DNA of 64,000 nt from an uncultured Desulfobulbaceae bacterium (GTDB lineage: Bacteria; Desulfobacterota; Desulfobulbia; Desulfobulbales; BM004), in contig CAMYKS010000004.1 in assembly GCA_947259115.1 (NCBI GenBank), positions 2,810-66,809 on the forward strand, given 5' to 3'. Shown piece after piece: positions 3,791-46,520 of this stretch. Position 1 is the first letter of the stretch, and each line of letters opens with the position of its first letter. Both the position numbers and the translations under genes were made by a program. Below the pieces are notes generated by a model. It was not told the origin of the DNA. It saw only the letters and a list, made by a program, of their open reading frames with translations, and ran no database searches.

Positions 3791-4519
3791 TCATAAGCCG
3801 TGCAGAGGAAAATCAGCAAAGAGCTGCTGGATTAAATTGTCAACGCTTTCCCGGCTGCGCAGATCATGCCGCCCGGAAGTGATTTTGGACGAATACCAGA
3901 TGATCTTGCCGTTAGCTCCGATTATCGAGGCATTGACTCTGGTAATGCCCGACCTGAGTGCACCATAGCTCCCTGTGACCGCGCTGGCTAGAATGCCTGC
4001 TGCCATGAGCGCCTGACGGCCGCCGGTGGAGACCTCATCAGAACCACAAATCATGATGATGCCGTCTGCCTCCAATTCCTTGAGGATATCATCTATGGGG
4101 CCGATGGAGTAGTCGAAATTCTGTATTTTCGTGGGAAAGATATGCGGACTCTGCCCATTCATTGCATGCAACTCAATGCTGTGACTCACAGCACCATACA
4201 GGGAACGGAGATCTTCAAGCTTCTCCTCCATTTCAGGGGAAAGCTCCTTGTCCATGATCTGGTATTTTATGCCCTGCAGGTTCTGCAGCACAGCGGCGGT
4301 CACGTTTTCCAGACCTATATTGCTCCACTCCTGTTTCGGCTCGCGCACCCCGCCTGCGGTCAATTCGTAGACCTCGACCTTGGGGAGTACCAGAATAGGG
4401 TTGCGGATTTCCCTGGACAGGGCTCTGAATTCCGGATTGACGCGATACTGCTGTGAAACGCAGCCGACATTGATTGAAAAAACGGCTAGTATTATGGAAA
4501 AAATTATTTTTTTTACCAT
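3791..4519 (-). CDS. hypothetical lipoprotein
   Basis: MVKKIIFSIILAVFSINVGC signal peptide with lipobox, SD-like GGGGA upstream of the ATG at 4519. No family recognised. Confidence 0.7.
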   Translation of the reverse strand: MVKKIIFSIILAVFSINVGCVSQQYRVNPEFRALSREIRNPILVLPKVEVYELTAGGVREPKQEWSNIGLENVTAAVLQNLQGIKYQIMDKELSPEMEEKLEDLRSLYGAVSHSIELHAMNGQSPHIFPTKIQNFDYSIGPIDDILKELEADGIIMICGSDEVSTGGRQALMAAGILASAVTGSYGALRSGITRVNASIIGANGKIIWYSSKITSGRHDLRSRESVDNLIQQLFADFPLHGL

Positions 4520-4682
4520 TTTTTCCCCGGTGATACGTTTTTTCTTATTCAGGCTGTGCTGAAAACCGGGATGGTCATGGCATCCCACTGCAAATCCTGA
4601 AAAGACACTTAAGGAACCCCTGAAAAACTCTGCAGAATAAAAAGCTGCGCCAAGTGAGCATAAACATAAAACTGAAAATTAA

Positions 4683-4838
4683 AAAATAAACTGTTTTTTT
4701 CAATTTTCAGCAAATCTGGAGTTTTTGCAAAAAACTGGTATAGAAGCAGTCCTGGCAGCCGGCATATTCCATAGGGCAGAAGAGCTCATCATGGCGGTCA
4801 AGAAACACCTTCTGGAACCGGGAATCGAAATCCGTTAA
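4683..4838 (+). pseudogene. hisF: relic of the 3' end of hisF (imidazole glycerol phosphate synthase cyclase subunit)
   Basis: Start-less frame reads ..ANLEFLQKTGIEAVLAAGIFHRAEELIMAVKKHLLEPGIEIR-stop. It parallels the HisF C-terminus (..HF.E.F..T.ADAALAAS.FHF.E.TI.E.K.YL...GI.VR). Stops lie immediately upstream and no upstream HisF sequence is present in any frame. Confidence 0.55.
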
Positions 4839-4926
4839 ACTTTACATTTTAACTGCTTATGGTAAATTGTAACAAACAAGCAGGGCCATAATAAGTCTTG
4901 AACCTTTATATTACCGGACTTCCTTC

Positions 4927-5430
4927 ATGATTCTAGCAGTTGATGTAGCATACCGGAAAGATGCGGCTATTGTGGGGGGTATACTTTTCCGCAACTGGAC
5001 TGCTGATAAACCCGTTAAAGAACTTGTGATCTCCTGTGCGGTTCCGGACAATTATATGCCTGGCCAGTTTTACCGGCGGGAGTTACCCTGTATAGCAGCC
5101 TTGTTGGAACAGGTGCCCGAAAAACTTGACTGCATTATCATTGACGGGTTTGTTTATCTGGGTAGTGACAGAGAACCCGGCCTGGGCAAACATCTGCGTG
5201 ACATTCTGGATGAAGAAGTTGCTGTTATCGGGGTGGCAAAAACGGAATTTTCTGAGACGCCAGAGTCCTGTGAAGTACTGCGCGGCAAGAGCAAAAATCC
5301 TCTCTATGTAACTGCAGATGGTATTAACGAAGAACGGGCAAAATTTCTTATCAAAAGCATGCATGGCGAGGACAGGATCCCCACCCTGCTCAAATATGTG
5401 GACCGTCTGTGCAAAAATCTTGCAGCATAA
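4927..5430 (+). CDS. endonuclease V-like protein (short form)
   Basis: ILAVDVAY (catalytic Asp region), PGQFYRRELP (compare PG.LAFRE.P), DCIIIDGFVY (compare VDG.G), AVIGVAKT (compare IGVAK). At 167 aa it is shorter than canonical Nfi. Confidence 0.6.
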   Translation: MILAVDVAYRKDAAIVGGILFRNWTADKPVKELVISCAVPDNYMPGQFYRRELPCIAALLEQVPEKLDCIIIDGFVYLGSDREPGLGKHLRDILDEEVAVIGVAKTEFSETPESCEVLRGKSKNPLYVTADGINEERAKFLIKSMHGEDRIPTLLKYVDRLCKNLAA

Positions 5431-5468
5431 TGATAACTCCTGTTATTGCAAAAGGTACAAGGAGTTAA

Positions 5469-5747
5469 TTACTTATCATTAAAGAGATCATTCAATTTCT
5501 CAAAGGCTTTATTTCCCAACCCGGCTTTGGCCGCTTCTCCTGTTGAGAGACAGAAGAAGTCACTGTAATTGGCCCGTTCCTTATCCTGCACCAATTCACG
5601 AACTGATTCCCGGCATTGCCGATAAGCATTGGCATCATAAAACTCACAGTGCAGGCAAATGTGAAGGTCCCTGCTGCAGAAATGACATTCATCCCTGATA
5701 TGGATCTTTGTTTCAGCAATTTCCTTATGACAGAATGCGCAGTTCAC
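5469..5747 (-). CDS. Cys-rich zinc-ribbon protein, function unknown
   Basis: CAFC..CHFC..CLHC..C pattern. It overlaps the stop of the upstream MazG-like gene by 4 nt. Confidence 0.6.
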   Translation of the reverse strand: MNCAFCHKEIAETKIHIRDECHFCSRDLHICLHCEFYDANAYRQCRESVRELVQDKERANYSDFFCLSTGEAAKAGLGNKAFEKLNDLFNDK

Positions 5748-6085
5748 TTGTAATCACTGTACTTGTTTGATTTGCCCCTGACCTTTACAGCAGGATATTT
5801 TTCCTCATTTTTTGCCAGTTTATCCTGGGCCGCCTGCAGGGGGTCTATGCCAAGCTTGTCGCAAATATTCACCAGGTAGATCAAAACATCGCCAATCTCC
5901 TCCCTCACCGCCGCAAGTTTGTCGGCTGCCAGGCTGTTGCTCTGCTCTTCAGTCAACCACTGGAAATGCTCGGCCAACTCGCTTGCCTCAACCACCAGGG
6001 CCATGGCAAGATTTTTGGGAGAATGGTATTGATCCCAGTCCCTCTCCTGGCGGAATTTTTTTACTTGCTCAAGTAAATCCTTCAA
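5744..6085 (-). CDS. MazG-like nucleotide pyrophosphohydrolase (small all-alpha NTP-PPase)
   Basis: FRQERDWDQYHSPKNLAMALVVEASELAEHFQW..EEIGDVLIYL carries the typical EExxE/D metal-binding helices of MazG/dCTPase-type proteins. Confidence 0.8.
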   Translation of the reverse strand: MKDLLEQVKKFRQERDWDQYHSPKNLAMALVVEASELAEHFQWLTEEQSNSLAADKLAAVREEIGDVLIYLVNICDKLGIDPLQAAQDKLAKNEEKYPAVKVRGKSNKYSDYK

Positions 6086-7816: not shown

Positions 7817-8290
7817 TCAGCCCAGGTCTTTTTTGAGCAGCATGATAAGATCTTTTTCAATTGCAGACCCCACAAGCTTCATTCTCTTGTGGTGTTTGCG
7901 ATTAAAAACATTCTCCATGGAAATCCGCAGTTGTGGCGTAATACTCTTTGTTGTCTTGCGTAATATCTTATCAAGGCAGGTCCTGACAAAACTTTCAGGG
8001 TACAGCACAAAACCATAGCAGGTGGCCTTCTCAGCCTGGAATAACGAATGGAAATTTTGATACATCGAGCCATGCCCGCGGCTCATTCCGGACCTGGAGA
8101 TAACATAGAGGTCCATGACGGGATAGTAAAGACCCGGGGCTTCCATAAGCATCCTTGAGGCCCGAGCCGAGGTGAGTGTCTGAAAATGCAATACTATGTC
8201 CTGGGCAGAAAATACAAATGTGTCGGATATTTTTTTAATCTCTGTCTTGATGCGATCCAATTCTGCCTGCGAATCTGTTTCCTGAACCAT
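7817..8290 (-). CDS. hypothetical protein
   Basis: 157-aa intact ORF directly upstream of the receiver gene on the same strand. No motif recognised. Confidence 0.45.
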   Translation of the reverse strand: MVQETDSQAELDRIKTEIKKISDTFVFSAQDIVLHFQTLTSARASRMLMEAPGLYYPVMDLYVISRSGMSRGHGSMYQNFHSLFQAEKATCYGFVLYPESFVRTCLDKILRKTTKSITPQLRISMENVFNRKHHKRMKLVGSAIEKDLIMLLKKDLG

Positions 8291-8516
8291 AATAATTGCT
8301 GAGAAAAGAGTCTTTTCATTTAAGCCAGGTTAATTCACGAGATGAGGTTACCGCTATCCTACTCTTTCTCAAAAACGAAAACAACCACTAAGGAATTAAG
8401 ATTGTGGACAAAATAATCCGCACTACGGCGGATTATTTTGGGGGGGCGATATGTAAATCTTGGCCAATTAATTCCTGGCCCTTCTTGTATGCTGATTGAA
8501 AGACAGGAATTATGAA

Positions 8517-8657
8517 TTATTTCATAAAGGATAGAGCAAGAACAGCCAACAGCCAAATACCGGTTAGTACTCCGCTCAGCATTAAAACACCTTCAACTAT
8601 TCTAGTGATTCTATCCTGTAATTGATTCTCCGACCTGGTATTTAGACTACTCTGCAT
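8517..8657 (-). CDS. candidate small membrane protein (46 aa), absent from the ORF track
   Basis: ATG at 8657 preceded by GGAGG 7 nt upstream. Translation is MQSSLNTRSENQLQDRITRIVEGVLMLSGVLTGIWLLAVLALSFMK with one C-terminal TM helix. Confidence 0.4.
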   Translation of the reverse strand: MQSSLNTRSENQLQDRITRIVEGVLMLSGVLTGIWLLAVLALSFMK

Positions 8658-8838
8658 GAGACACCTCCGGACTTTTTCATTTTTTACAAGAAAAAATCAA
8701 CCAATCAGATTCCTAAGCATTTGCATTTTCCAGCACAACTTATTGAAATTATTGATTTTACGCAATACAAAAGAGCAACAGGCACTACCACAATGTAGCA
8801 AAGAGAAATGTAAAATTCAAGAAAAACCTATGGCCGCT

Positions 8839-9615
8839 TTATGGATAAAATACTTTCCCCTGCGGCTGCCATGGCTTTATAAATTGCCCTGAAGCTACTT
8901 GAAAGGCTTCAACCAGATCACCTAGTTTAGCCTTGTTAAAATTTCTGATTTTCAAGCCCACCTGTTGCCCTTTCGTTGCCTCCCTGACTCCATTTTTTTC
9001 AATATGCAGAGACTCGATCATCCCGCTATATATTGGACCCATGGCACCCACAACCCGGAAAGGGTGTCCCCGCTCCAGCTTGCCCTGCAAAACTTCACAA
9101 CCCAGAATTATACCCCTGCGACTGCTTTTAAAAAGAGCAATGACCCTGGCAGACCCGACAATGTCTTCTGAGAATTCCTGTGGCATAAAGCTTGTGGCTA
9201 TCGCCTCTAAATCTTCAAGCAGTTTGTAAATAATGTCATAGAGTCGAATCTCAATAGTATGTTCAGTGGCAGTCTGCTCAATATGGGGCATAAGTCCGAC
9301 ATTGAAACCGATAATGAGCCTGCTGCCGGTTTCCGCTATGAAGAGGTCTGATTTATTTACAGCGCCCACGCCTGAGCTGATAATATTAATTTCCACTTCA
9401 GGCAGAGCGCAGGAGCTGATGGCGGAAATGACCGCTTCGGCACAACCGGATGTATCGCACTTCAGGACAATCTCCAGTCTTTTCTTTGCATCTGGGTTTA
9501 CAGAGAGATGATTCTTTCTCTCTGCTGATGTCTCTGCGTGCCTGCTTTTCTTTTTTTTATAATGGTGAGCACTCTTTCTGCTGCCCATGCCAAAGCATCC
9601 TCCAGGCATAAACAT
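8839..9615 (-). CDS. stand-alone IF2 C-terminal-half (C1-C2 domain) paralogue without GTPase domain
   Basis: Collinear with the last ~230 aa of bacterial IF2: LEIVLKCDTSGCAEAV, IISSGVGAVNKSD, IIGFNV, IRLYDIIYKLLEDL, GSARVIALFKSSRRGIILGCEVLQGKLERGHPFRV, LGDLVEAFQV. The N-terminus is a basic tail (HHYKKKKSRH). Start may be M10 at 9588 (GGAGGA 9 nt upstream). Confidence 0.75.
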   Translation of the reverse strand: MFMPGGCFGMGSRKSAHHYKKKKSRHAETSAERKNHLSVNPDAKKRLEIVLKCDTSGCAEAVISAISSCALPEVEINIISSGVGAVNKSDLFIAETGSRLIIGFNVGLMPHIEQTATEHTIEIRLYDIIYKLLEDLEAIATSFMPQEFSEDIVGSARVIALFKSSRRGIILGCEVLQGKLERGHPFRVVGAMGPIYSGMIESLHIEKNGVREATKGQQVGLKIRNFNKAKLGDLVEAFQVASGQFIKPWQPQGKVFYP

Positions 9616-9748: not shown

Positions 9749-10120
9749 CTATGCTGCCTTTCTTGACATTTTCTTCAACCTGTTAATGCGACGGCGGATT
9801 ATCTCAAGTTTTTTCTTGTCCCCATCTTTGCGTAGCGCTTCCCTCTCGTCACGAAGCCGGATAATTTCCTGTTTCATTTCCCTGGGGGTCATTTCCTTCT
9901 TGGGGCCGGCAGTTTTTTTCTTTTTTGCTTTCTTGGCTGGAGTTTCATCCTTAATACCTCTGGCTTCCTTGATTGCTTCCAGCAACTCCTCCTTCTTCAT
10001 GCCGGTCACGCCGATTATGTCGGGAATTTCTCCCTTTGCAACTTCACGAAGTTCAACAACAGTCATCTTATCCAGGGATTTTTCGGCTGACTTTTCTGCA
10101 TTTTTTACATCTTCGGCCAT
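9749..10120 (-). CDS. Rho_N/SAP-like domain, lysine-rich protein
   Basis: LDKMTVVELREVAK..GVTGMKKEELLEAI (Rho termination factor N-terminal-type helix-extended-helix), then a KKAKKKK tract and a coiled coil. GGAGGAG lies upstream of the ATG at 10120. Confidence 0.65.
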   Translation of the reverse strand: MAEDVKNAEKSAEKSLDKMTVVELREVAKGEIPDIIGVTGMKKEELLEAIKEARGIKDETPAKKAKKKKTAGPKKEMTPREMKQEIIRLRDEREALRKDGDKKKLEIIRRRINRLKKMSRKAA

Positions 10121-10288
10121 TTGTTCTCCTCCAGTTCTGTTTTTAAAATTCCAGCACCAGTTCCTGCGCTTTAGCACATGCCTTTTCCATATAATGAGTC
10201 ATTTTTATTTATTCATAATAAGGCTTTATGCAAGGTAATTTTTTCAGTTAAATTGTAATTTTTAGTCCTAATCCTGTCTGCAACGCTG

Positions 10289-10719: not shown

Positions 10720-11100
10720 TTACTTTTGAACCTCCCCGGCATTTCTAAGTCTTTGCCAAAGGGTCCAATAAACAGCAATATTCACCCCCAGAACTATCAG
10801 GCCGAGACCGAATTGCGTCTTCCGGGTTAGTTCTGCCGGATAAAGGATAGGTATTATATAATGCTCAACAAAGCCTGTTGCATATCCTGCATCGCCACCC
10901 AAGGCGCGTAACAGGTTTTCCAGAGGCGTCAGGGGACATATCCAGCCAAAAAACTCAATGCTTGCGGCCCAGACAACAGCTGGAATATGAAACCAGGCCA
11001 TTGCTGATCTCCAAAACACAAGAAATCCTCCCAGCAGAACAAACAAGACAAAGCCCAGATGCAGCAGAACAACAAGATCAGCGAGAAAATTGTAAACCAA
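10720..11100 (-). CDS. DUF2784-family membrane protein
   Basis: LADLVVLLHLGFVLFVLLGG..HIPAVVWAASIEFFGWICPLTPLENLLR..FVEHYIIPILYP matches my recollection of the DUF2784 signature (CPLT.lE). Confidence 0.6.
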   Translation of the reverse strand: MVYNFLADLVVLLHLGFVLFVLLGGFLVFWRSAMAWFHIPAVVWAASIEFFGWICPLTPLENLLRALGGDAGYATGFVEHYIIPILYPAELTRKTQFGLGLIVLGVNIAVYWTLWQRLRNAGEVQK

Positions 11101-11160
11101 CCTTTACCTCATAGAAGGACTTATTATACAAATATTTTTCCCTCTTATATAAAAAAACGT

Positions 11161-11952
11161 TTAGCCAAAAAGAGTTCCGGCTAACAGTTTCTGCCGAATA
11201 ACTTCCTTGAGAACCATATTTTTCTTTTTAAAACCCTCACGTCCATACTGCATATTCGCTTCAATCAGGTACCACTTTCCATGACTCTGCAAAAGATCAA
11301 GACCAACATCATTAAAATTGCATTTTCTGGAAAATTCCTTGGCCAATTCGATAACATCCCGGGGTATGTTGTCGAAATCAATCATTCCGCCCTGGTACAG
11401 ATTTGTTCTGAAATCTCCATGGGGTAGTTTACGCCAATAAGCCAGAACCGGTTCATAGTTGATCAGGACCACCCGCAAATCCTTTTCATGGGGAATAAAT
11501 TCCTGGATATAGGCGAATTTCGTCTTTTCCAGATACTCCCCCAGTTCAGCTGATTCAGTAATTTTAAACACCCCTCTCCCCCGGGATGATCTCCTGGGAA
11601 TCTTTGCAATGAATGGAAAGGGGAATTCATTTTCGATGCTGCTGAATTCTCTTTTCAGGTAGATTTTTGTTTTGGGATGCGGAATGGAAAGCATGGTAAA
11701 AAGGGTGGTCTGCTTCATTTTTTGGCCAGCATACAGGTAGGTCTCTACGCTGGGAAAAATCTTCTTACCCATTGTGGTAAGATACTGGGCATAATTCAGG
11801 CTTGGATACAGGACACACTCGGCGCCCAGTATTTTCTGTCTTTCCGCCTGAGTATAGTCATGAAAATTAGGTTTTACCCCGAGGGTGAGAACCTCCGGCA
11901 CGCCAACCAGTCTACTGCCTAAAGCAATATATTTAGGGTGAACCTGCTCCAT
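11161..11952 (-). CDS. ATP-grasp enzyme (RimK-like ligase family)
   Basis: FPFIAKIPRRSSRGRGVF, YIQEFIPHEKDLRVVLI, DFRTNLYQGG, VGLDLL..YLIEANMQYG. Confidence 0.7.
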   Translation of the reverse strand: MEQVHPKYIALGSRLVGVPEVLTLGVKPNFHDYTQAERQKILGAECVLYPSLNYAQYLTTMGKKIFPSVETYLYAGQKMKQTTLFTMLSIPHPKTKIYLKREFSSIENEFPFPFIAKIPRRSSRGRGVFKITESAELGEYLEKTKFAYIQEFIPHEKDLRVVLINYEPVLAYWRKLPHGDFRTNLYQGGMIDFDNIPRDVIELAKEFSRKCNFNDVGLDLLQSHGKWYLIEANMQYGREGFKKKNMVLKEVIRQKLLAGTLFG

Positions 11953-11965
11953 ATGACATCAATAT

Positions 11966-12505
11966 TTATTGGCGACAGTTAACCGGCTTATGATCCTCAG
12001 GGATCGGTTTAAGACGGCCTGCAGTCATAATTTCCTCCAGACCCCGATCAAGTCCCTCAACAAACTTATCTTCCCGAAATAATGGAAACATTACTTCTTT
12101 GAGTATTGTATCCGCTGTCCCATTTTGAATAAACCATTCAAAGGCGGAACCTGTCTCAATACGCACTGACCCCTCCTCCATGGCAACACTGACCAGGAAG
12201 CCATTGCCAAAGCCCGGTTGCCCGATTTCCCAGGCTGCGGCTGTTCTTTGAGAAAACTCCTCTATATTTTCACCAGCAAGTGATGGAATGATAATCACGA
12301 AAATTTGGTGGCAGGTTTCCTTTTCATACGCTTCCAGAGCAGCGGAAATTCGCACTTTTTCTTCCGGTTGCAGTTTATCTGCATAATCACTCACCCATCC
12401 CTGTCGCATCAAAACCGTTGGAGAGTCCTCCGTTTGCGAACATGCGTAAAGGAAAATCAATAAAACTCCCAGAAAAAATAATGGTACAGGACTGTAATAT
12501 TTCAT
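11966..12505 (-). CDS. TPM-domain (TLP18.3/Psb32/MOLO-1-type) lipoprotein
   Basis: Signal peptide MKYYSPVPLFFLGVLLIFLYAC, then TPM pattern VSDYADKLQPEE..QIFVIIIPSL..EEFSQRTAAAWEIGQPGFGNGFLV. An alternative ATG lies at 12520. Confidence 0.7.
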   Translation of the reverse strand: MKYYSPVPLFFLGVLLIFLYACSQTEDSPTVLMRQGWVSDYADKLQPEEKVRISAALEAYEKETCHQIFVIIIPSLAGENIEEFSQRTAAAWEIGQPGFGNGFLVSVAMEEGSVRIETGSAFEWFIQNGTADTILKEVMFPLFREDKFVEGLDRGLEEIMTAGRLKPIPEDHKPVNCRQ

Positions 12506-12524
12506 CGCTTTTTCCGACATACTG

Positions 12525-12878
12525 CTAGAGTGTAATAATTTCATAACCCTGCTCAATATATGGTGCCATGCCGGCATGGCCTGCCATGTCTTCTGCAATC
12601 CTGAAGCCTTCTGCTTCGGCCGCTGCAAGTGCTCCCATCTTTATGGCACAGGCAAGGCAGACTGCATCGATGAGGGCAAGCTTTTTTACCTTCTCGAAGA
12701 GCGCATGCAGGGGATGCTCCGATTTGCTGAGCTCAATGATGAGCCCTGTGGCCTCCCCTTCCAGGATAATTTTTACCTCGCCTTCCTTTTCATGCAAATC
12801 AATGGCATTAAGAAGCACGTGGGCAAAGCAGATGGGGTTGCCCTTGAAGGCAAAAATAGCGGTCTTGTTAACTTTCAT
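12525..12878 (-). CDS. DsrE/DsrF-like family protein
   Basis: 117 aa with a KTAIFAFKG N-terminal strand, GEVKIILEGEATGL and CLACA active-site-like Cys region typical of the DsrE fold. Confidence 0.5.
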   Translation of the reverse strand: MKVNKTAIFAFKGNPICFAHVLLNAIDLHEKEGEVKIILEGEATGLIIELSKSEHPLHALFEKVKKLALIDAVCLACAIKMGALAAAEAEGFRIAEDMAGHAGMAPYIEQGYEIITL

Positions 12879-30018: not shown

Positions 30019-32997
30019 ATGAAGCCTGACATTAGTTTGTGGCATGATGACCTGGACAGCAGCTTTAAGGTCTTCCATGAGCTCATGGCATACAAGATAC
30101 GTGATATCCTCCTGGTACTGAGCCCTTACGACGCCTTTATCATGGAAGAGGACACCAGCCTCTCCACCCGGATCATCAACGAATACAGAGGATTGAACCT
30201 CAGCAAACCGCCGCGCCTGACCAACGTTTCCACTGCTGCTGAAGCTCTTGAACTGGTACGCTATAAAAAATTCGACTTGGTTATTACCCTGCCCCAGGTG
30301 GGCGAGATGGACTGCAACATCTTAGGCCTCAAAATAAAAGAAATCTGTCCGCATCTGCCGGTAATCCTCCTGGCCCACAGCCTGAAAGCAATCACCCCAT
30401 ACATGGAAAAAGGGAAGCGATCCGGAATTGACAATTTCTATATCTGGTCTGCCGACCCCGCACTTCTCCTGGCGCTTATCAAGAACATTGAAGACCATCA
30501 TAACGTTGAATGGGATACCTCCCTGGCCATGGTTCGTGTTCTCATCCTCGTGGAGGATTCGCCGCTTTACCGATCATTCTTCCTGCCGCTGCTCTATAAG
30601 GAGGTGGTGGCCCAGACCCAGGCGGTCCTGGATGATAGCCTCAATGAGGAGCACAGGCTCCTGAAGATGCGCGGTCGGCCAAAGATCCTGGTGGCGGAAA
30701 ATTATGAAGAAGCGATGCAGCTCTATCACAAGTATAAAAACTTTGTTTTCGGCATCTTTTCCGATACCCGTTTTCCCAAAAATTCCAATTTAAAGGATAA
30801 CGCAGGATTAGAGCTGCTGCAGCATATTCGCAGGGAGATACCGGATCTACCACTGTTGCTCCTCAGTTCCGAATCGACCAATGCCCCAAAGGCAGAAGCA
30901 ATTCCAGCAAGTTTTATCAATAAAAACGACGACATACTTGAAGAGGAAATCCACCGGTTTTTTCTGCAGCATCTCGGTTTTGGTGATTTTATTTTCCACA
31001 TGCCGGACGGCTTGCAAGTTGACCAGGCCTCAAGTCTGCACTCTTTTGAAAAAAAACTGGCCACCATCCCTTATGAATGCCTGCTGTTCCATGCGACACA
31101 CAATCATTTCTCAAACTGGGTTATGGCCAGGGCAGAGATTGGCCTTGCGTCCCGTTTGCACAAGAGCCGTATAACTCAGTTTAACAATGTTGAGACGCTG
31201 CGCCAATACCTTATTAAGCAGATCCATTCCCTGCGCAGATTGAGGGAACAGGGTGTTGTGGCCCATTTTGCCGAGCATGATTTTGATGCCGATGTCATGC
31301 AGTTTGTCAAGATAGGGCATGGCTCAATGGGGGGCAAGGCTCTGGGGCTGGCCTTCATGGCCTCACAACTTTCTAAAAATGGGTGGCTGCAGGAAAAATA
31401 TCCCCAGCTAAGCATCTCCATACCACCGACCCTTGTCCTAACAACTGAAGGGTTTCAGGCTTTTATGCGGCAAAATAATCTCTTAATTGATTTTGCAAGT
31501 AAAAGCGATGCTGAAATCGCCTCACTTTTTCTTGCGGCAGCTATGCCGACCTGGCTTGAAAATCAACTTGGCGCTTTTCTGCAACAGGTATTCGAGCCAT
31601 TAAGCGTCCGCTCCTCAAGCCTTCTTGAGGATGCACTGCACACACCCTTTGCCGGACTTTTTGAAACCTATATGCTGCCAAACAACCATGCTGACCATGG
31701 AATCCGCCTGCAGCAACTGGTTAAAGCTGTAAAGCTTGTTTTTGCCTCAACGTACTTCGCCGATCCACGGGCCTTTTCCTCTGGAATAGACAAACATGCA
31801 TCCAGCCCTGAAAGCATGGCTGTCATTATTCAAATATTGGCAGGCAAGCCATACGGCAACTATTTCTATCCTGCAATTTCCGGCATAACCAAATCGTACA
31901 ATTACTATCCAGTTGGTAAAATGAAAGCGAATGACGGCATTGCGCAGATCGCCTTAGGCTTTGGCAAAACAGTAGTAGAAGGGGGAAAATGCCTTCTCTT
32001 TTCTCCCCCTTACCCGAAAAAACTGCCCCAGTTTGCAAACGTCGATGATATGCTGTCCAGCTCCCAGCAGAGCTTTTATGCCCTGCGCATCAAGGGATAT
32101 CCTGCTGAACTCGACTACTGCCAATCTAATCTTGTGCAGCGGGAAATAAGCGATGCTGAAAATGAACCACCCGTCCAGGCCATGGTAAGCACCTATTTTC
32201 CTGAGGATCATGCTGTTCGGGACAGCTTCTCCAAAGGTCCGAAGGTTGTCACTTTTGCCTCCATCCTGAAACATCAGATGCTGCCTCTGGCAGATCTGTT
32301 GCAGGATCTCCTGGAACTGGGCTACAAGGGGATGAGCTGTGATATAGAAATCGAGTTCGCTGTTGACTTGGGCAGCGATGCTGAGAAGAGCAGGTTTCAT
32401 TTCCTGCAGATCCGCCCCATGGTTGCCGGTGAGAACCGCTATGAAGTTACAATTGATCAGACAGAGATCGATGGGGCTTTTTGCTATTCCAGTAAGCCCC
32501 TGGGGCATGGAATAGATGATACAATTGCTGATATTGTTTATATAAAACCGGAGACATTCAAAACTAAGGAGACCCGGGAAATATCCCGTGAGATCGGTCA
32601 TATCAATGCCAGGCTCATAAAAGGGCAGAAACCATACCTGCTTATCGGCCCGGGAAGATGGGGGTCGGCTGACCCCTGGCTGGGCATCCCGGTTGGCTGG
32701 GAGGACATTTCCGGGGTGGCGGCAATGATTGAACTGCGTAATGACCAGCTCTTTGCCGAGGATTCCCAGGGCACCCACTTTTTCCAGAATATTACCGCCA
32801 TGGGTATCAAATACCTGACAGTCACTGAAAACGATGAAAAGCTTGCCGATTTCATCAACTGGCAATGGCTAGCATCTTTACCGACAACCTATGAGACAGA
32901 ACACTTGAGACATGTGCGTCTTGCAAACCCTTTTCGTATTAAAGTTAACATTCAGACATCGGAATGCGTCATATTTGAAAAAAATAATAAGAAATAG
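30019..32997 (+). CDS. receiver-like domains fused to a PEP/pyruvate-binding (PPDK_N ATP-grasp) domain and a C-terminal GPGRWGS domain
   Basis: N-terminal CheY-like segments (ILLVLSPYD.., VLILVEDSP..GIFSDTRFP). PPDK_N motifs GGKALGLAFM, SVRSSSLLEDALHTPFAGLFETY, AVIIQIL, FLQIRPM. C-terminal LIGPGRWGSADPWLGIPV..SQGTHFFQN. No GGxTSH swivel motif seen. Confidence 0.75.
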   Translation: MKPDISLWHDDLDSSFKVFHELMAYKIRDILLVLSPYDAFIMEEDTSLSTRIINEYRGLNLSKPPRLTNVSTAAEALELVRYKKFDLVITLPQVGEMDCNILGLKIKEICPHLPVILLAHSLKAITPYMEKGKRSGIDNFYIWSADPALLLALIKNIEDHHNVEWDTSLAMVRVLILVEDSPLYRSFFLPLLYKEVVAQTQAVLDDSLNEEHRLLKMRGRPKILVAENYEEAMQLYHKYKNFVFGIFSDTRFPKNSNLKDNAGLELLQHIRREIPDLPLLLLSSESTNAPKAEAIPASFINKNDDILEEEIHRFFLQHLGFGDFIFHMPDGLQVDQASSLHSFEKKLATIPYECLLFHATHNHFSNWVMARAEIGLASRLHKSRITQFNNVETLRQYLIKQIHSLRRLREQGVVAHFAEHDFDADVMQFVKIGHGSMGGKALGLAFMASQLSKNGWLQEKYPQLSISIPPTLVLTTEGFQAFMRQNNLLIDFASKSDAEIASLFLAAAMPTWLENQLGAFLQQVFEPLSVRSSSLLEDALHTPFAGLFETYMLPNNHADHGIRLQQLVKAVKLVFASTYFADPRAFSSGIDKHASSPESMAVIIQILAGKPYGNYFYPAISGITKSYNYYPVGKMKANDGIAQIALGFGKTVVEGGKCLLFSPPYPKKLPQFANVDDMLSSSQQSFYALRIKGYPAELDYCQSNLVQREISDAENEPPVQAMVSTYFPEDHAVRDSFSKGPKVVTFASILKHQMLPLADLLQDLLELGYKGMSCDIEIEFAVDLGSDAEKSRFHFLQIRPMVAGENRYEVTIDQTEIDGAFCYSSKPLGHGIDDTIADIVYIKPETFKTKETREISREIGHINARLIKGQKPYLLIGPGRWGSADPWLGIPVGWEDISGVAAMIELRNDQLFAEDSQGTHFFQNITAMGIKYLTVTENDEKLADFINWQWLASLPTTYETEHLRHVRLANPFRIKVNIQTSECVIFEKNNKK

Positions 32998-41255: not shown

Positions 41256-43421
41256 TTACTGGAGAGCAATAATCTCAGTAGCTGTTCCCATGACCACCGG
41301 CTCACCCATGTTGGCTGCTGTCCAGATATCAAATGTGACATTGCCCCATGTCATATGATTTTCAAAAGGCCCGTCAGGAAGATTTCGGGCCCGGCCTCCG
41401 AATTTCTCCGTGTTTTCCGTATCATGCTCATTGAGAAACTCCATGTACTCCCTGTTAAAGGTCTGGTATTTCAGGGTGGCGGTCACGGTAACGGCTCCCT
41501 GTGCCGATGCGGGAATCGTAAAGGCATAGGGTGTCACATCCCAGTTCTGCCCGGTGGGATAGTCCGTATCCTTTGGATCATGGGGAACAATAAAGGCCCC
41601 GTCTTTCATGTACGCCTCTTTATTGTAGCCAAGAGGAGGGATCCTGTTGTCCTTCTCGATATAGTTCATCAGGACGAAATGAAATTCCTCCTCTGCATGG
41701 GTCACAGTCCCGTCTTTGTCCGCATCAATAATGCTGTAACCATCGAGTTTAAAATTCTTGTAGCCCTCTGCCAGGACCAGCTGTTCATAGACTTTGATCA
41801 TGGTCTTCCCCGGGTCCATGACAAAGCCGCCGTTTGCTGCCGCAAAATATTCTTTGCGGGCAAGGGAGCCGTCAGGCAGCAAATATCCGCTTTCAAAGAG
41901 CAGCGTACCCGATTGATCAACTGCCTGTACATGAAGCCACATCTGCCGCCCTTCGGCAAAACCGGAAGGAAGCTTGTGCCCTGTTTTATTCGTCACCTTG
42001 ACATTTACCGTGACCACCTGGCCGGGCGCAGCCTGGGCAGGAGTATTAACCAGTGCTATATCTGCTGCGGTGTCCCGCATAAATGCCCTGTTTCTATTCA
42101 TGGCATCCATATATGACTGGGTTCTCCAGGGATTAACAGAATAATTGTAAGGGGGTTTTGTCCACTTATCATCAATCGGGCCCCAGAGCATGTCGAGCCC
42201 CGGGTAAAGAAGCCAGGTTTGGGCGCCCTGGAATTTCATGGGCACATGACAGTCCTGGCATTTTGTATTGCCGCGGTAACCGCTCCAGTACCATTCGGTA
42301 TAGGTTCTCTCTATGGGGTGGAGCATGCGGTCCACGCCGGAGGTCCTGGTATAGATGAGCGGATTGGTGACATCGTGGCAGGCACCGCAGAATTGACTGG
42401 CGTCTGCAAAACCACCGGAAGATCCGGTGCCCGTGGAATTCTCCCCGTGGCAGTGAGCACAGTCCCTGTGGGCAATAATTTCAAGATAGCCGAAAGAAAA
42501 ATCACGGGTATGACAGGAAAAACACTCATAGATCCCTCCCGATTCGCCTGAGATGGCTTCCGTGCCTTCTGGAATATCTGCTCCGTCTCGAAGATGGTGA
42601 CGCACCCTGGTTGTGTCATTCATATCAGAGAAAAAACTTCCGTTTCCTGCAGCCATCACTCTTCCGTCATAACGGGACTGTCGCGTGTATCCCTCATTGA
42701 ATTTTGCCCGATGGCAGAAATCACACTGCATGCCCTCCATTTCCGCTTCAGACTCTTCAAGGGTATTCACGGCTCGGGGGTTGCCGAACTCATCAACGGG
42801 ATTTTCCTTAAAGGCTGCTCCCCAGAACTGTCCTTTCAGAAAGGGGGCATGGGGCGTCGCAGGCTCAGAGTTCCCCTCCATCCATCCCACCGGAGTATGA
42901 CAGCGCAGGCACATATCCGCTGTCAGGGGAATCTTGTCTTCTTCAAGGAGCTGGATATCACCTCCGGGTATGCAGGGTTCCCCGATGTTGGGGTCATACA
43001 GCTCCAGAGCACAGGCAACTTCTCTTGCCGTCCCAATGCCGACAAGATCGAAAAGGTCCTGATTGAATGTATCGATTCCTTTGGCGACAGCAGCATAGAT
43101 CAGGTTGATAAAATCATTGTTTGCCACATATGTCGTGGCGAAAAAAGCAGGATCACGGGCGGCATTTCCCATGGTCATCCCGGCCCAGTCACGATAATGG
43201 TTCCCGTCTCCCAGGCGTTGGGGCGCCCTGAAGCCTTCCTTCACCGCACACAGGTCCTGGCCCTGGTCATTTAAGACTTCCAAGCCGTAACCGCAGCTGT
43301 TCTCCATAAATCCTCGGGGCTGGGTGGAATCAAAGTCGGTTAATACATTTGCCATCAAAGACCCTGGAGTTGAAAAAACAAGCAATACTAAAGCAATGGT
43401 CTCTATACATTTTACCTTCAT
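41256..43421 (-). CDS. secreted hexahaem c-type cytochrome with non-haem C-terminal domain carrying an EF-hand-like loop
   Basis: Signal peptide. Six CxxCH motifs (CLRCH, CDFCH, CFSCH, CAHCH, CGACH, CQDCH). C-terminal ~260 aa lacks haem motifs and contains VTNKTGHKLPSG and DADKDGTVTHAE. AAGGAGGG is placed for the ATG at 43421. Confidence 0.85.
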   Translation of the reverse strand: MKVKCIETIALVLLVFSTPGSLMANVLTDFDSTQPRGFMENSCGYGLEVLNDQGQDLCAVKEGFRAPQRLGDGNHYRDWAGMTMGNAARDPAFFATTYVANNDFINLIYAAVAKGIDTFNQDLFDLVGIGTAREVACALELYDPNIGEPCIPGGDIQLLEEDKIPLTADMCLRCHTPVGWMEGNSEPATPHAPFLKGQFWGAAFKENPVDEFGNPRAVNTLEESEAEMEGMQCDFCHRAKFNEGYTRQSRYDGRVMAAGNGSFFSDMNDTTRVRHHLRDGADIPEGTEAISGESGGIYECFSCHTRDFSFGYLEIIAHRDCAHCHGENSTGTGSSGGFADASQFCGACHDVTNPLIYTRTSGVDRMLHPIERTYTEWYWSGYRGNTKCQDCHVPMKFQGAQTWLLYPGLDMLWGPIDDKWTKPPYNYSVNPWRTQSYMDAMNRNRAFMRDTAADIALVNTPAQAAPGQVVTVNVKVTNKTGHKLPSGFAEGRQMWLHVQAVDQSGTLLFESGYLLPDGSLARKEYFAAANGGFVMDPGKTMIKVYEQLVLAEGYKNFKLDGYSIIDADKDGTVTHAEEEFHFVLMNYIEKDNRIPPLGYNKEAYMKDGAFIVPHDPKDTDYPTGQNWDVTPYAFTIPASAQGAVTVTATLKYQTFNREYMEFLNEHDTENTEKFGGRARNLPDGPFENHMTWGNVTFDIWTAANMGEPVVMGTATEIIALQ

Positions 43422-43565
43422 GTTCACCATCCCTCCTTTTGTAAATAAAAAACTGCGAAGTAATCACTTTTTCAGCCTGCCCTAATAGTCGGGGCCCTAT
43501 CTCATTTTTATTAGTCCTGCTTTTTTCTGCCCAACCTTTACAGGTACTTCGGCTTTTACTTTTGT

Positions 43566-43619
43566 GGAAAAACACAAGGCCTCCATAGGGAAACGAATAC
43601 ATTCCCCTGGAGGCCTTGT
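43566..43619 (-). terminator. terminator/attenuator-like hairpin in the 5' region of the hexahaem cytochrome gene
   Basis: Perfect 12-bp stem ACAAGGCCTCCA/TGGAGGCCTTGT (43574-43619), followed on the minus strand by G-TTTTT. It lies ~150 nt upstream of the start codon. Confidence 0.5.
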
Positions 43620-43862
43620 AATGGCGTTTTTAAATACACCTCTCTCATTGAAGTTTCCTTCTATTGGAGATTTTATGAATATGCCAGGACTTTGATTTAT
43701 AAAAAAACATATAAACCTGATTGTCAATAAAAATTAGAAAGAACAACTTGGTAGGAATGGTTGCTAATTTAGATGTCTGTGTAAGTCAAACTGGGGATTT
43801 TTTATGATGGAAGGATGGCTGATGGTATTATTCGATAAAATTGATTTTTATATGCCTCTTTA

Positions 43863-43897
43863 ACAAAAGCCCCCCACTGGTAATTCCAGCGGGGGGC
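43863..43897 (-). terminator. rho-independent terminator ending the cytochrome operon
   Basis: Stem GCCCCCCACTGG/CCAGCGGGGGGC (one mismatch), followed on the minus strand by TTTTGTT. It lies 28 bp after the 43925 stop. Confidence 0.75.
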
Positions 43898-43924
43898 TTG
43901 ATTTATTAACTGAAAGGTTGTCTG

Positions 43925-45376
43925 TTACTCTGGTTCATCGTGGCACAGGTCGCAGTCCATTTTGATGTAGTTGCCGGCCTCGGAGGTATGTTCCTCATCA
44001 TGGCAGCGGAAGCAGCCAAAGCCGTTTTCATCATAATACTTATGGCCGAGATGCCCTGAATAAGTACCCCATAGGACATTCATGTTGGGCCAGACATTAT
44101 TCATATAGGACTCAACCAGGTACTCTCCTGCAGCCCTGATATCCTCTCCATTTTCCTCGGCCTGCTTTTCGCTGCGCAGTTTCTGTAGCCCCAGCAGGTG
44201 TTCAGTCATTTTGGCCTCGGCCTCTTCCCTGGACGGGTACTCCCGCTGCAGGGCAATGAGGCTGTCCTCCCTGATGCCTTCAATTTCCGGGTTGATCCTC
44301 TTGCTGAGCAGACCGAAGTCCACTACTTCATCGGGCATATCATAGATGTGGGTAGGACGATTATGGCAGTCGATACAATCCATGGTGCGCCATTCACCTT
44401 CCTCGCCCTCCGGCATCTCAATATCCTCTTTGACAAATTCCTCTTCAGAGCCGTCTGGACGCTTCACCCTGACCCTGGCTACCTGGGTCCGCTTTTTATC
44501 AGCAGCAAGATAACTGACCTCAACATCCTTACTTACATGCCAGTGGATGCCCTCAAAATCTCCGGTCTGGGGATTATGACCGCCGATATGCAGGGCCATT
44601 TCATTGACCTCGGGATTGACCTGGTCATCGTTGGAAAAATGGCTGAATGTCTTAATCTTCTTACCGTGGAACTTATCAGGCCAGTGACACTGTTCACAGG
44701 TGTCCCGGGCAGGACGCAGATGCTCCACCGGTGCCGGGATCGGACGGCTGTAGCTGTCAGCCACAACAGCCAATACCTGGCGTAGGCCTGATATCTTGGC
44801 CTGCACGAACCAGTCGGCGCCAGGGCCGATATGGCATTCCACACAGGCAACCTTTACATGGGGAGAGCGCTGGTAGGCCGTATATTCCGGCGCCATGACA
44901 TCGTGGCACACCATGCCGCAGAAATAAGGTGAATCGGTAAAGTGATAGCCTTCATAACCGACGAGAACAAGAACTGCTAAGTTGACGATGGTCAGGATAA
45001 TGAAGCCGATTATGAATTTACGATGCTTGTGATCACTGAGGTTGATCTGCAGGTGTTCTTTGACAATGCCGTACTTATGGTATTGCTTCCTTCTTAACCA
45101 GGCAGCAAGGGGGATAATCAAAAGACCCAGTATCATGCCGACCGGCAGAATCATAAAGGTTATTATACCGATATAAGGGTTGTGGAAGACTCCCAATACC
45201 TCTGCAATTATGCCGAGTATCATCAAGGTGATACTGACAGTTGTCAGGACTACTCCGAACATTCCAAGGGGTGTACGCCACATCCCCCGGATAATGTGAC
45301 CCCATGGCCCTCTGTAGCTTTTGGTGCCGCCACCTGTTGTAGTTTGCTCTTCCTGGTTTGTTTCGTTCTCAGACAT
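43925..45376 (-). CDS. inner-membrane NapC/NirT-type multihaem cytochrome (ImcH-like architecture)
   Basis: Three N-terminal TM helices, then haem motifs CGMVCH (CX3CH), CVECH, CEQCH, CIDCH, CFRCH, CDLCH. Confidence 0.8.
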   Translation of the reverse strand: MSENETNQEEQTTTGGGTKSYRGPWGHIIRGMWRTPLGMFGVVLTTVSITLMILGIIAEVLGVFHNPYIGIITFMILPVGMILGLLIIPLAAWLRRKQYHKYGIVKEHLQINLSDHKHRKFIIGFIILTIVNLAVLVLVGYEGYHFTDSPYFCGMVCHDVMAPEYTAYQRSPHVKVACVECHIGPGADWFVQAKISGLRQVLAVVADSYSRPIPAPVEHLRPARDTCEQCHWPDKFHGKKIKTFSHFSNDDQVNPEVNEMALHIGGHNPQTGDFEGIHWHVSKDVEVSYLAADKKRTQVARVRVKRPDGSEEEFVKEDIEMPEGEEGEWRTMDCIDCHNRPTHIYDMPDEVVDFGLLSKRINPEIEGIREDSLIALQREYPSREEAEAKMTEHLLGLQKLRSEKQAEENGEDIRAAGEYLVESYMNNVWPNMNVLWGTYSGHLGHKYYDENGFGCFRCHDEEHTSEAGNYIKMDCDLCHDEPE

Positions 45377-45591
45377 TTCTCTTAGCTCTCCTTCGCTATC
45401 TTCTTCATTGGTGCGGATATATAAATATTCCTAAATATAATCAGGCCAGGCTTTTGTAGTCCGGACTTATCTCATTAATTTCTGGTGATCTTTAAACCAC
45501 GATGTGGCAAACAAGGTCAACTCATGAAAGAACCCGTTTATATAACAAAGGGGGTCCCAAAGCTCAACTATTTTTATGTACGAAAAACTAC

Positions 45592-46434
45592 CTATTTTAC
45601 ATACAGGAAGACCATTGAGTAGATAATGGATACAACGAGAGTGAGACCTATAGCCAAAGCGGTAAAACCAAAAACATGGGACACAACAAAAAACCAGCGT
45701 GGTGTCGGGGGCACTTTGATCTCGTCAAGCTTGCCTGCAGCAACGAGCTCGGCATATTCCCGGGGCCGTTCATGCCTCAGTTCTTCCAGGGGCATGGTGC
45801 CGGTGAAAATAACCGGGTCCATGGGAAATTTTTCAGGACGTAAATGGGTATTGAAAAAATGGATGGTGAAAATAAATCCCGATGCCAGCAGGGCCTCATC
45901 GCTGTGGATAATTGTGGCAATGTTAATCCAGTAACCGGGTATGAATATGGTGAATGTTTCAGGGAACCAGAGGCATAATCCCGTTGTACCGATGACTGCC
46001 ACACCCCAGAAGACCGCCATGAAATCAAACTTTTCCCAGTAGGTCCAACGCCCGTATTGCGGCTGCGGCCCCAAACCGAAAAACCACTTGAAGGTCTGGA
46101 TCAGTTCCTTGGCATCGTTCAGGTTAGGAATCATGCTGTCTTTATAAAGGATAAATTGCACAATTGATTTGCCGGACTTCCTCCAATTCTGGTACATGAG
46201 GACAAAGGTTAAGGCAAAGTAGGTAAATGTAACAATGGCCATTAACCTGTGCAGTGCTCCCAAGACCTCAAAGCTGCCAAAAAAATCTGCAACAAATTCA
46301 GCCCATCTCTCCGAGGCAAACTTAAGCGCCATGCCGGTAACAGCCAGGGTCAAAAAGCTGACAATCACCAGAAAGTGCAGAAATCTGGGAAAAATTGAAA
46401 AACGTTGTACATATTCTACTTGTGGGTTGTCCAT
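45592..46434 (-). CDS. membrane b-type cytochrome subunit (FdnI/HydC-like)
   Basis: RFSIFPRFLHFLVIVSFLTLAVTG opening typical of FdnI/HydC-type dihaem b subunits, 5 TM helices, conserved His (HRL, IHSDEALLA, HFFNTH). Confidence 0.7.
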   Translation of the reverse strand: MDNPQVEYVQRFSIFPRFLHFLVIVSFLTLAVTGMALKFASERWAEFVADFFGSFEVLGALHRLMAIVTFTYFALTFVLMYQNWRKSGKSIVQFILYKDSMIPNLNDAKELIQTFKWFFGLGPQPQYGRWTYWEKFDFMAVFWGVAVIGTTGLCLWFPETFTIFIPGYWINIATIIHSDEALLASGFIFTIHFFNTHLRPEKFPMDPVIFTGTMPLEELRHERPREYAELVAAGKLDEIKVPPTPRWFFVVSHVFGFTALAIGLTLVVSIIYSMVFLYVK

Positions 46435-46520
46435 AATGAATCTTCCTTCTCAAAAACTCTCGGCTCTGCCGACATTTCTGTTTATATTCAAATTACTTTA
46501 AGAGCTGTTTTATTTTATCC

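Follow-up and report, generated by a model that had tools for sequence, protein, structure and literature searches.

A gene family related to the C-terminal half of initiation factor IF2, lacking the G domain and carrying replaced fMet-tRNA contact residues

Initiation factor IF2 is universal in bacteria, so that a full-length infB gene is to be expected elsewhere in the source genome of the DNA described here, and in E. coli the full-length protein coexists with IF2-2 and IF2-3, N-terminally shortened isoforms that arise from internal infB starts. Fragments of the B. stearothermophilus protein termed IF2 C and IF2 C-2 contain the whole fMet-tRNA site (Spurio et al., 2000; Guenneugues et al., 2000, as cited in PMC4611024); the fMet pocket in that species consists of R654, Q655, F657, G667, and E713, and the isolated C2 domain binds both fMet and fMet-ACC (PMC4611024). 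In E. coli IF2, the single replacement R847G strongly lowers the affinity for fMet-tRNA (PMC8709274). Outside bacteria, Pbp11 of the Thermococcales is a stand-alone barrel of the translation-factor type, the N-terminal part of which is needed for tRNA binding (PMC9540759).

An intact open reading frame of 258 codons on the minus strand (8839..9615) of the window, which is the whole 64-kb stretch of DNA analysed, was found to be collinear with the C1 and C2 domains of IF2, as the first-pass annotation of this DNA had proposed: the protein aligns without gaps to residues 682-883 of E. coli IF2, and Pfam, TIGR00487, and phmmer agree on the assignment. The Pfam IF-2 model (PF11987, the C1 domain) matched residues 28-137 with 97.9 bits against a cut-off of 27 (E 4.6e-28), and the C2 barrel drew only sub-threshold matches to EF-Tu domain D2/D4 models (GTP_EFTU_D2, 25.4 versus a cut-off of 30.3). 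Residues 16-241 aligned to positions 355-580 of the 587 in TIGR00487 (IF-2), that is, to 226 positions in the C-terminal part of the model only, and the score of 165 bits did not reach the curated whole-protein cut-off of 424.4. The best phmmer match in the PDB was E. coli IF2 (E 1.7e-35; residues 40-241 against 301-502, with zero gaps), and isolated C2 (1d1n, E 9.5e-16) and C1 (1z9b, E 2.6e-15) domains were also recovered. Identity to E. coli IF2 682-883 amounts to 63 of 202 residues (31%), and the core motifs K-x-D-x-x-G-x-x-E-A, GFNV, R-x-Y-x-x-I-Y, F-K, G-C-x-V, and S-L are common to IF2 and to the family introduced below. The proposed absence of a G domain and of the N-terminal IF2 regions was borne out by the missing GTP_EFTU match and by the exclusively C-terminal TIGR00487 alignment. 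When four full-length IF2 proteins were compared with the 64-kb window by tblastn, the sole match lay at 8869..9546 (approximately IF2 residues 642-945), and Pfam scans of the large open reading frames of the window returned neither another piece of IF2 nor a full-length infB.

The translation start was set at the second ATG of the open reading frame, at 9588, because it is preceded, at a distance of 10 nt, by a GGAGG sequence and because the N-termini of more than 100 homologues read MGSRK or MSSRK; by this evidence translation begins at M10 of the 258-aa frame, giving a protein of 249 aa. The gene and its ribosome-binding site are as follows.

8839..9588, minus strand: gene for the 249-aa paralogue of IF2 C1-C2 without a G domain, stop codon (8839..8841) included, defined by the reading frame, the start, and the IF2 homology
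9599..9603, minus strand: Shine-Dalgarno sequence GGAGG, read from the sequence, within the spurious 9-codon extension and 10 nt ahead of the start codon at 9588

Similar GGAGG or GGGAG sites precede the gene in related loci. Having a Shine-Dalgarno site to itself, the gene appears to form an independent unit. Two first-pass details had to be adjusted: the N-terminal tail is indeed basic, yet about 35 aa long instead of about 40, since the real start is the second ATG; and the upstream sequence, described as 130 bp, does lack any G-domain remnant, with the gap itself corrected to 133-160 bp and ending at a Rho_N-like gene.

Homologs were recruited from protein collections, and more than 200 sequence clusters of 220-270 aa, typically about 249 aa, were assembled into one family. 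A collection of 5.8 billion proteins contributed over 120 clusters with 60-84% identity and lengths of 238-302 aa, in most cases 249; exhaustive phmmer searching of representatives at 50% identity added about 20 further clusters of short proteins at 140-255 bits, ordinary full-length IF2 ranking next in that list at no more than 140 bits and 26-39% identity; and a profile of 15 distant members drew in another large set of 219-269 aa. The wider set, at 37-55% identity, retains the length and the hallmarks of the family, namely 220-270 aa, a basic N-terminal tail, C1, a C2 domain with S-L-H-I-E and G-Q-Q-V-G-L-K, and a C-terminal W-x-P-x-G; these recur in 137 aligned members, and the window protein has every one of them. 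All named sources are metagenome-assembled or single-amplified genomes of Desulfobulbaceae, Desulfobulbales, Desulfobulbia, Desulfobacteraceae, or Thermodesulfobacteriota. Other short IF2-like proteins, P0151 and P0153 among them, fall outside the family; their G3 sequence and normal C-termini mark them as pieces of ordinary IF2 cut off at contig edges.

When 126 family members were aligned together with 97 IF2 C-termini, family members shared a median identity of 0.57 with one another and IF2 proteins one of 0.47, against 0.34 for comparisons across the groups, and the family formed a single clade apart from IF2 in 50 of 50 neighbor-joining bootstraps. Pairwise dN/dS across 17 loci ranged from 0.08 to 0.38 (median 0.19), which indicates that the family is under purifying selection. 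These values bear directly on the suspicion, raised by the presence of only the C-terminal 35-40% of IF2 and by the name "translation initiation factor IF-2" that JGI pipelines give to homologues, that the gene is a pseudogene left by recent truncation of infB, half of an infB gene split in two, or a product of mis-assembly. Such an origin is excluded because the family is large and monophyletic, its dN/dS is low, and no G-domain reading frame adjoins the gene: in about 25 family loci, inspected over the surrounding 6-8 kb, the sole nearby GTPase gene was an unrelated selB (L007). Hundreds of independent contigs show the same architecture, with its own start and Shine-Dalgarno site, IF2 proteins are just 23-44% identical to family members, the added tails are family-specific, and gene order is maintained on contigs as long as 913 kb, so that an artefactual or decaying gene is effectively refuted and the earlier description of an intact, diverged, stand-alone gene that is no fresh truncation holds. 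The comparative evidence thus shows that the gene encodes a functional, selected paralogue of the C-terminal half of IF2 without the GTPase, a coexisting infB being expected from the universality of IF2. Source databases label the members either "hypothetical" or "IF-2", and the latter label is, judged by these sequence comparisons, wrong. No account of a family of G-less IF2 C1-C2 proteins came up in literature searches, and the family is apparently undescribed so far.

The domain anatomy was read from profile and PDB matches, from conservation within the family, and from an AlphaFold model built on a 137-sequence alignment (mean pLDDT 83.5), which superseded a 30-sequence run with a pLDDT of 66.

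9484..9588, minus strand: N-terminal tail, residues 1-35, rich in Lys, His, and Arg and predicted to be disordered (pLDDT below 50 for residues 1-33)
9235..9483, minus strand: C1 domain (Pfam IF-2), residues 36-118, supported by PF11987 and 1z9b, modelled with alternating strands and helices at pLDDT above 90
9172..9234, minus strand: helix connecting C1 and C2 (equivalent to IF2 H12), residues 119-139, modelled as a helix over 120-133 and aligned with E. coli IF2 770-790
8896..9171, minus strand: C2 beta-barrel with remodelled fMet pocket, residues 140-231, supported by the 1d1n match and the comparison of columns in 126 family and 97 IF2 sequences
8842..8895, minus strand: C-terminal extension absent from IF2, residues 232-249, marked by the conservation of W240, P242, and G244 and by a pLDDT of 93 at 240-249

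In the model, the strands of C2 span residues 141-231 at pLDDT above 90. The best Foldseek matches in the PDB were all IF2, ribosome-bound states included, with TM scores of 0.61-0.70 and rmsd values of 2.6-4.0 Å over about 200 columns; the top match was 9a4o_A (TM 0.70, rmsd 2.8 Å, 199 columns), followed by the ribosome-bound 7unv_x and 3jcj_f. C2 is the best-conserved region of the family, with a mean top-residue frequency of 0.76, and its net charge is +4.2, versus -0.9 in IF2. The N-terminal tail is poorly conserved in sequence and retains its composition (20% Lys and 11% His in the first 20 residues; family mean net charge +6.1). IF2 proteins end about 7 residues past the C2 barrel; the family continues into a C-terminal tail of net charge +2.9 with the motif W-x-P-x-G, in which W240 is found in 137 of 137 sequences, P242 in 133, and G244 in 127. 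Because residues 240-249 are modelled with a pLDDT of 93, the prediction is that this tail docks against the folded part of the protein, and it may fill the former fMet pocket. Family-specific features of C1 include K79, where IF2 has Glu, and a T-G-S-R loop at 87-90. A metal or redox site was suspected at a pair of cysteines in the core clade (K-C-D-T-S-G-C, within LKCDTSGC) and then dismissed, as the wider family has Ser, Ala, or Thr at these positions.

The motif readings of the first-pass annotation were exact, SLRRFKDDV of IF2 corresponding to SLHIEKNGV and ECG to QVG, and its claim that residues contacting fMet-tRNA have changed holds for the whole family, in which the replacements are fixed, whereas IF2 has kept the original residues. 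Pocket columns were mapped on the B. stearothermophilus and E. coli numbering, and residue frequencies were compared between the 126 family members and the 97 IF2 sequences. Six of the 11 contact positions have been replaced by other conserved residues.

E. coli R801 (B. stearothermophilus R654; I150 here): Arg or Lys in 82% of IF2, Ile in 96% of the family
E. coli R846 (H195 here): Arg or Lys in 97% of IF2, His in 94% of the family
E. coli R847 (I196 here): Arg in 83% of IF2, Ile in 97% of the family
E. coli F848 (E197 here): Phe in 60% of IF2, Glu in 83% of the family
E. coli E860 (B. stearothermophilus E713; Q209 here): Glu in 96% of IF2, Gln in 83% of the family
E. coli C861 (V210 here): Cys in 99% of IF2, Val in 90% of the family

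The other five contacts, F804, G814, C815, K849, and G862 (F153, G163, C164, K198, and G211 here), are kept, and new basic residues (K148, R157, K158, and K213) surround the pocket. By this pattern the pocket was rebuilt and later fixed in the family, and such conserved replacements argue for a new specificity over decay. Since three Arg, the Glu-Cys pair, and Phe were replaced and then frozen, the ligand is probably something other than fMet-tRNA. This weighs on the idea that the protein is a decoy of IF2 that still binds fMet-tRNA, a free C1-C2 module sequestering the initiator tRNA or blocking the site of IF2, its specificity unchanged from that of IF2, and thereby acting as a brake on initiation. 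Such a decoy would accord with collinearity to the part of IF2 that holds the whole fMet-tRNA site (PMC4611024) and with the five retained pocket residues; however, six contact positions have been exchanged in at least 83% of members, R847 among them, the loss of which alone strongly weakens fMet-tRNA binding (PMC8709274), and conserved replacements point to a new specificity, so that this explanation is quite improbable.

The function favoured here, at a probability of roughly 45%, is that of a GTP-independent, RNA-binding accessory factor of translation, a binder of tRNA or of the ribosome with a changed ligand. The RNA-binding character is suggested by the charge of C2 relative to that of IF2, by the positive charge of both tails, and by the position of C2 as the best-conserved region. 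Under this proposal, the protein would act without GTP; the basic C2 barrel and the two flanking basic tails would grip a tRNA at its acceptor end, or the ribosome where the C-terminal half of IF2 sits; the rebuilt pocket would accept another acylated or free tRNA 3' end, or rRNA, in place of fMet-tRNA; and the bound RNA would be held or shielded, or the place of IF2 occupied, such that initiation is tuned, possibly under stress. The proposal is supported by two precedents, the laboratory IF2 C fragment, an autonomous binder of fMet-tRNA, and Pbp11. Against it stand the lack of a conserved translation neighbour and of a nearby tRNA gene, and work of the Gualerzi laboratory in which the isolated IF2 C fragment alone reportedly did not bind ribosomes; the loss of three basic residues with the gain of a Glu at the CCA/fMet site could mean that the classical tRNA-end site was abolished rather than retargeted. 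A narrower version, in which a GTP-independent translation factor of Desulfobulbia and Desulfobacteria would use its re-specified pocket to read a non-fMet tRNA 3' end (unformylated, differently acylated, or uncharged) and would thereby control initiation or protect that tRNA, is unlikely.

Genomic context was examined in the window and in related loci. Two conserved genes flank the family gene in the window.

9749..10120, minus strand: 123-aa Lys-rich Rho_N-like protein, directly upstream (Rho_N 24 bits, just under the Pfam cut-off)
7817..8290, minus strand: 157-aa conserved protein of unassigned family, downstream, with synteny confined to 10 core-clade loci

The Rho_N-like neighbour is syntenic in 12 of 20 loci, all in the core clade, and is absent near distant members. 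It combines a Rho_N/SAP-like helix-hairpin with a KKKKK stretch and an RRRINRLKKM C-terminus, and is 68-81% identical in 11 related loci; the open reading frame list starts it at a GTG at 10177, and homologues point to the ATG at 10120. The 157-aa neighbour, conserved at 74-85% identity in nine loci, has no Pfam, NCBIfam, or significant PADLOC match (marginal, PDC-M69A, E 0.009). The core-clade run comprises, upstream, genes for TPM, a RimK-like ATP-grasp protein, DUF2784, EamA, sometimes AhpC, and the Rho_N-like Lys-rich protein, then the family gene, and past it genes for a 157-160-aa protein, a receiver domain, TerB, PilZ, and a MazG-like protein. In the window, the TPM, RimK-like ATP-grasp ligase, and DUF2784 block occupies 10720..12628 (minus strand) and is kept together upstream in most core-clade loci, the ligase scoring 70 bits against rimK_fam, below the cut-off. 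Between the family gene and the 157-aa gene lies a gap of about 550 bp (8291..8838) without a conserved reading frame, Rfam match, or terminator-like site; because its size varies in relatives, from about 100 to 635 bp, it apparently holds no conserved element.

Near distant members the neighbours are of other kinds: glyoxalase and amidohydrolase genes at one locus, two HSP20 genes and NfeD at another, Lon and HU at a third, a histidine kinase and receiver at a fourth, and a rubrerythrin-like protein at L018. At L007, from the Desulfobulbaceae MAG isolate B4-01, a 643-aa selB-like selenocysteine elongation factor (3962..5893, plus strand) ends 99 bp upstream of the family gene; this adjacency, the only one to a translational GTPase, is confined to L007 and is not repeated in the closest relative (L002/L008). 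At L014-L016, from three Desulfobulbia/Thermodesulfobacteriota MAGs, a 247-aa protein with a signal-peptide-like N-terminus is encoded about 745 bp upstream of the family gene; its reading frame ends exactly at the first in-frame TTG of the family frame, about 21 nt before the likely ATG, which, as an ending at the first start codon, suggests co-transcription with an unrelated gene there. No operon partner is shared family-wide, since neighbours differ between clades and no translation gene is conserved among them, and an operon-based function was therefore rejected, the Rho_N-like and 157-aa neighbours being limited to the core clade and the distant neighbours unrelated. The window gene does not lie in a rimP-nusA-(ylxR)-infB-rbfA operon, its neighbours being Rho_N-like, EamA, DUF2784, RimK-like, and response-regulator genes (compare the true infB locus L033). 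Searches around the family gene found no tRNA genes, no terminator-like site, promoter-like sites no commoner than in shuffled sequence, a single sub-threshold chance match to Rfam inside the reading frame, and no upstream motif common to related loci that was visible by eye; no PADLOC defence model matched the window protein.

These surroundings are one ground for a further explanation, that the C1-C2 fold was exapted for work outside translation, where it would bind a small ligand, a protein, or a nucleic acid of another kind; a stress-response adaptor is one example. In that case the protein would resemble Pbp11, which links the proteasome and the translation machinery; a translation neighbour is conserved nowhere in the family, several neighbours (AhpC, the rubrerythrin-like protein, the HSP20 pair with NfeD, and Lon with HU) lean toward stress and redox functions, the classical fMet site has been stripped of charges, and the invariant Trp tail is new. 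The neighbour theme is loose, however, each clade having a different abutting gene; the strong positive charge of barrel and tails fits RNA best; and the closest structural matches are all ribosome-bound IF2. Exaptation is accordingly a rather doubtful alternative, although a stronger one than the decoy, and the RNA-binding accessory factor is retained as the preferred reading.

Elsewhere in the window, a run of large multihaem cytochrome genes (41256..48527, minus strand) encodes proteins of 724 aa (c7, MtrC/MtrF-like), 483 aa (with a NapC/NirT-type N-terminus), and 668 aa (c3, c7, and paired-CXXCH), as would fit an electron-transfer module of the Desulfobulbales type, extracellular or periplasmic. 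A 992-aa protein with receiver-like and PPDK_N (PEP-utilising, ATP-binding) domains is encoded at 30019..32997 (plus strand), among PAS/Cache histidine kinases.

The family is of interest as a natural set of genes that keeps only the initiator-tRNA half of IF2, selected across a bacterial class, with a rebuilt pocket for the amino acid. If its members bind a tRNA end or the ribosome, the C-terminal module of IF2 would be shown able to work alone, a ready-made comparison for the reading of formyl-methionine by IF2 would be at hand, and a hidden layer of initiation control might exist in abundant sulfate reducers of sediments. Should the pocket prove to be re-specified, it would constitute a natural experiment in re-targeting the ligand site of IF2. 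Annotation pipelines call the members "IF-2" or "hypothetical", and a separate family is warranted at least.

Compared with known systems, the protein shares with bacterial IF2 (InfB; TIGR00487) the fold and the order of C1, connecting helix, and C2 barrel, and its model superposes on ribosome-bound IF2. Unlike IF2, it has no N-terminal region, G2, or G3, and scores 165 bits against a 424-bit cut-off; its fMet-tRNA contacts are replaced, its barrel is basic where that of IF2 is slightly acidic, it carries a W-x-P-x-G tail and a Lys/His-rich head, and its gene stands outside the rimP-nusA-ylxR-infB-rbfA operon. It is thus homologous to IF2 and of the same fold; of the features that define IF2 itself, it lacks the G domain, falls short of the curated score, and departs in contact residues and in operon. 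The IF2-2 and IF2-3 isoforms are likewise shorter forms of IF2, but they come from infB itself and never lack the G domain, whereas here a separate, diverged gene lacks it. Domains III-IV of aIF5B/eIF5B are homologous (E 2e-8 to 1e-5), and domain IV is also extended past the barrel, yet they are much more distant (18-25% identity), their extension is a pair of helices, and they are invariably part of a GTPase. Pbp11 (NF041207; PDB 7anu) is likewise small and stand-alone, with a beta-barrel of the translation-factor type, but is archaeal, an approximately 11-kDa barrel only, and without a C1 domain; its similarity is marginal (NF041207, 18.5 bits, below the cut-off of 100; 7anu, E 0.086), and it is an analogy, not a case of membership. 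The IF2 C fragments form a free C-terminal module that is stable alone and show that a G-less module can be an autonomous binder of an RNA end; they are man-made and keep the pocket of IF2, whereas the gene described here is natural and its product combines added tails with a pocket that is different and conserved.
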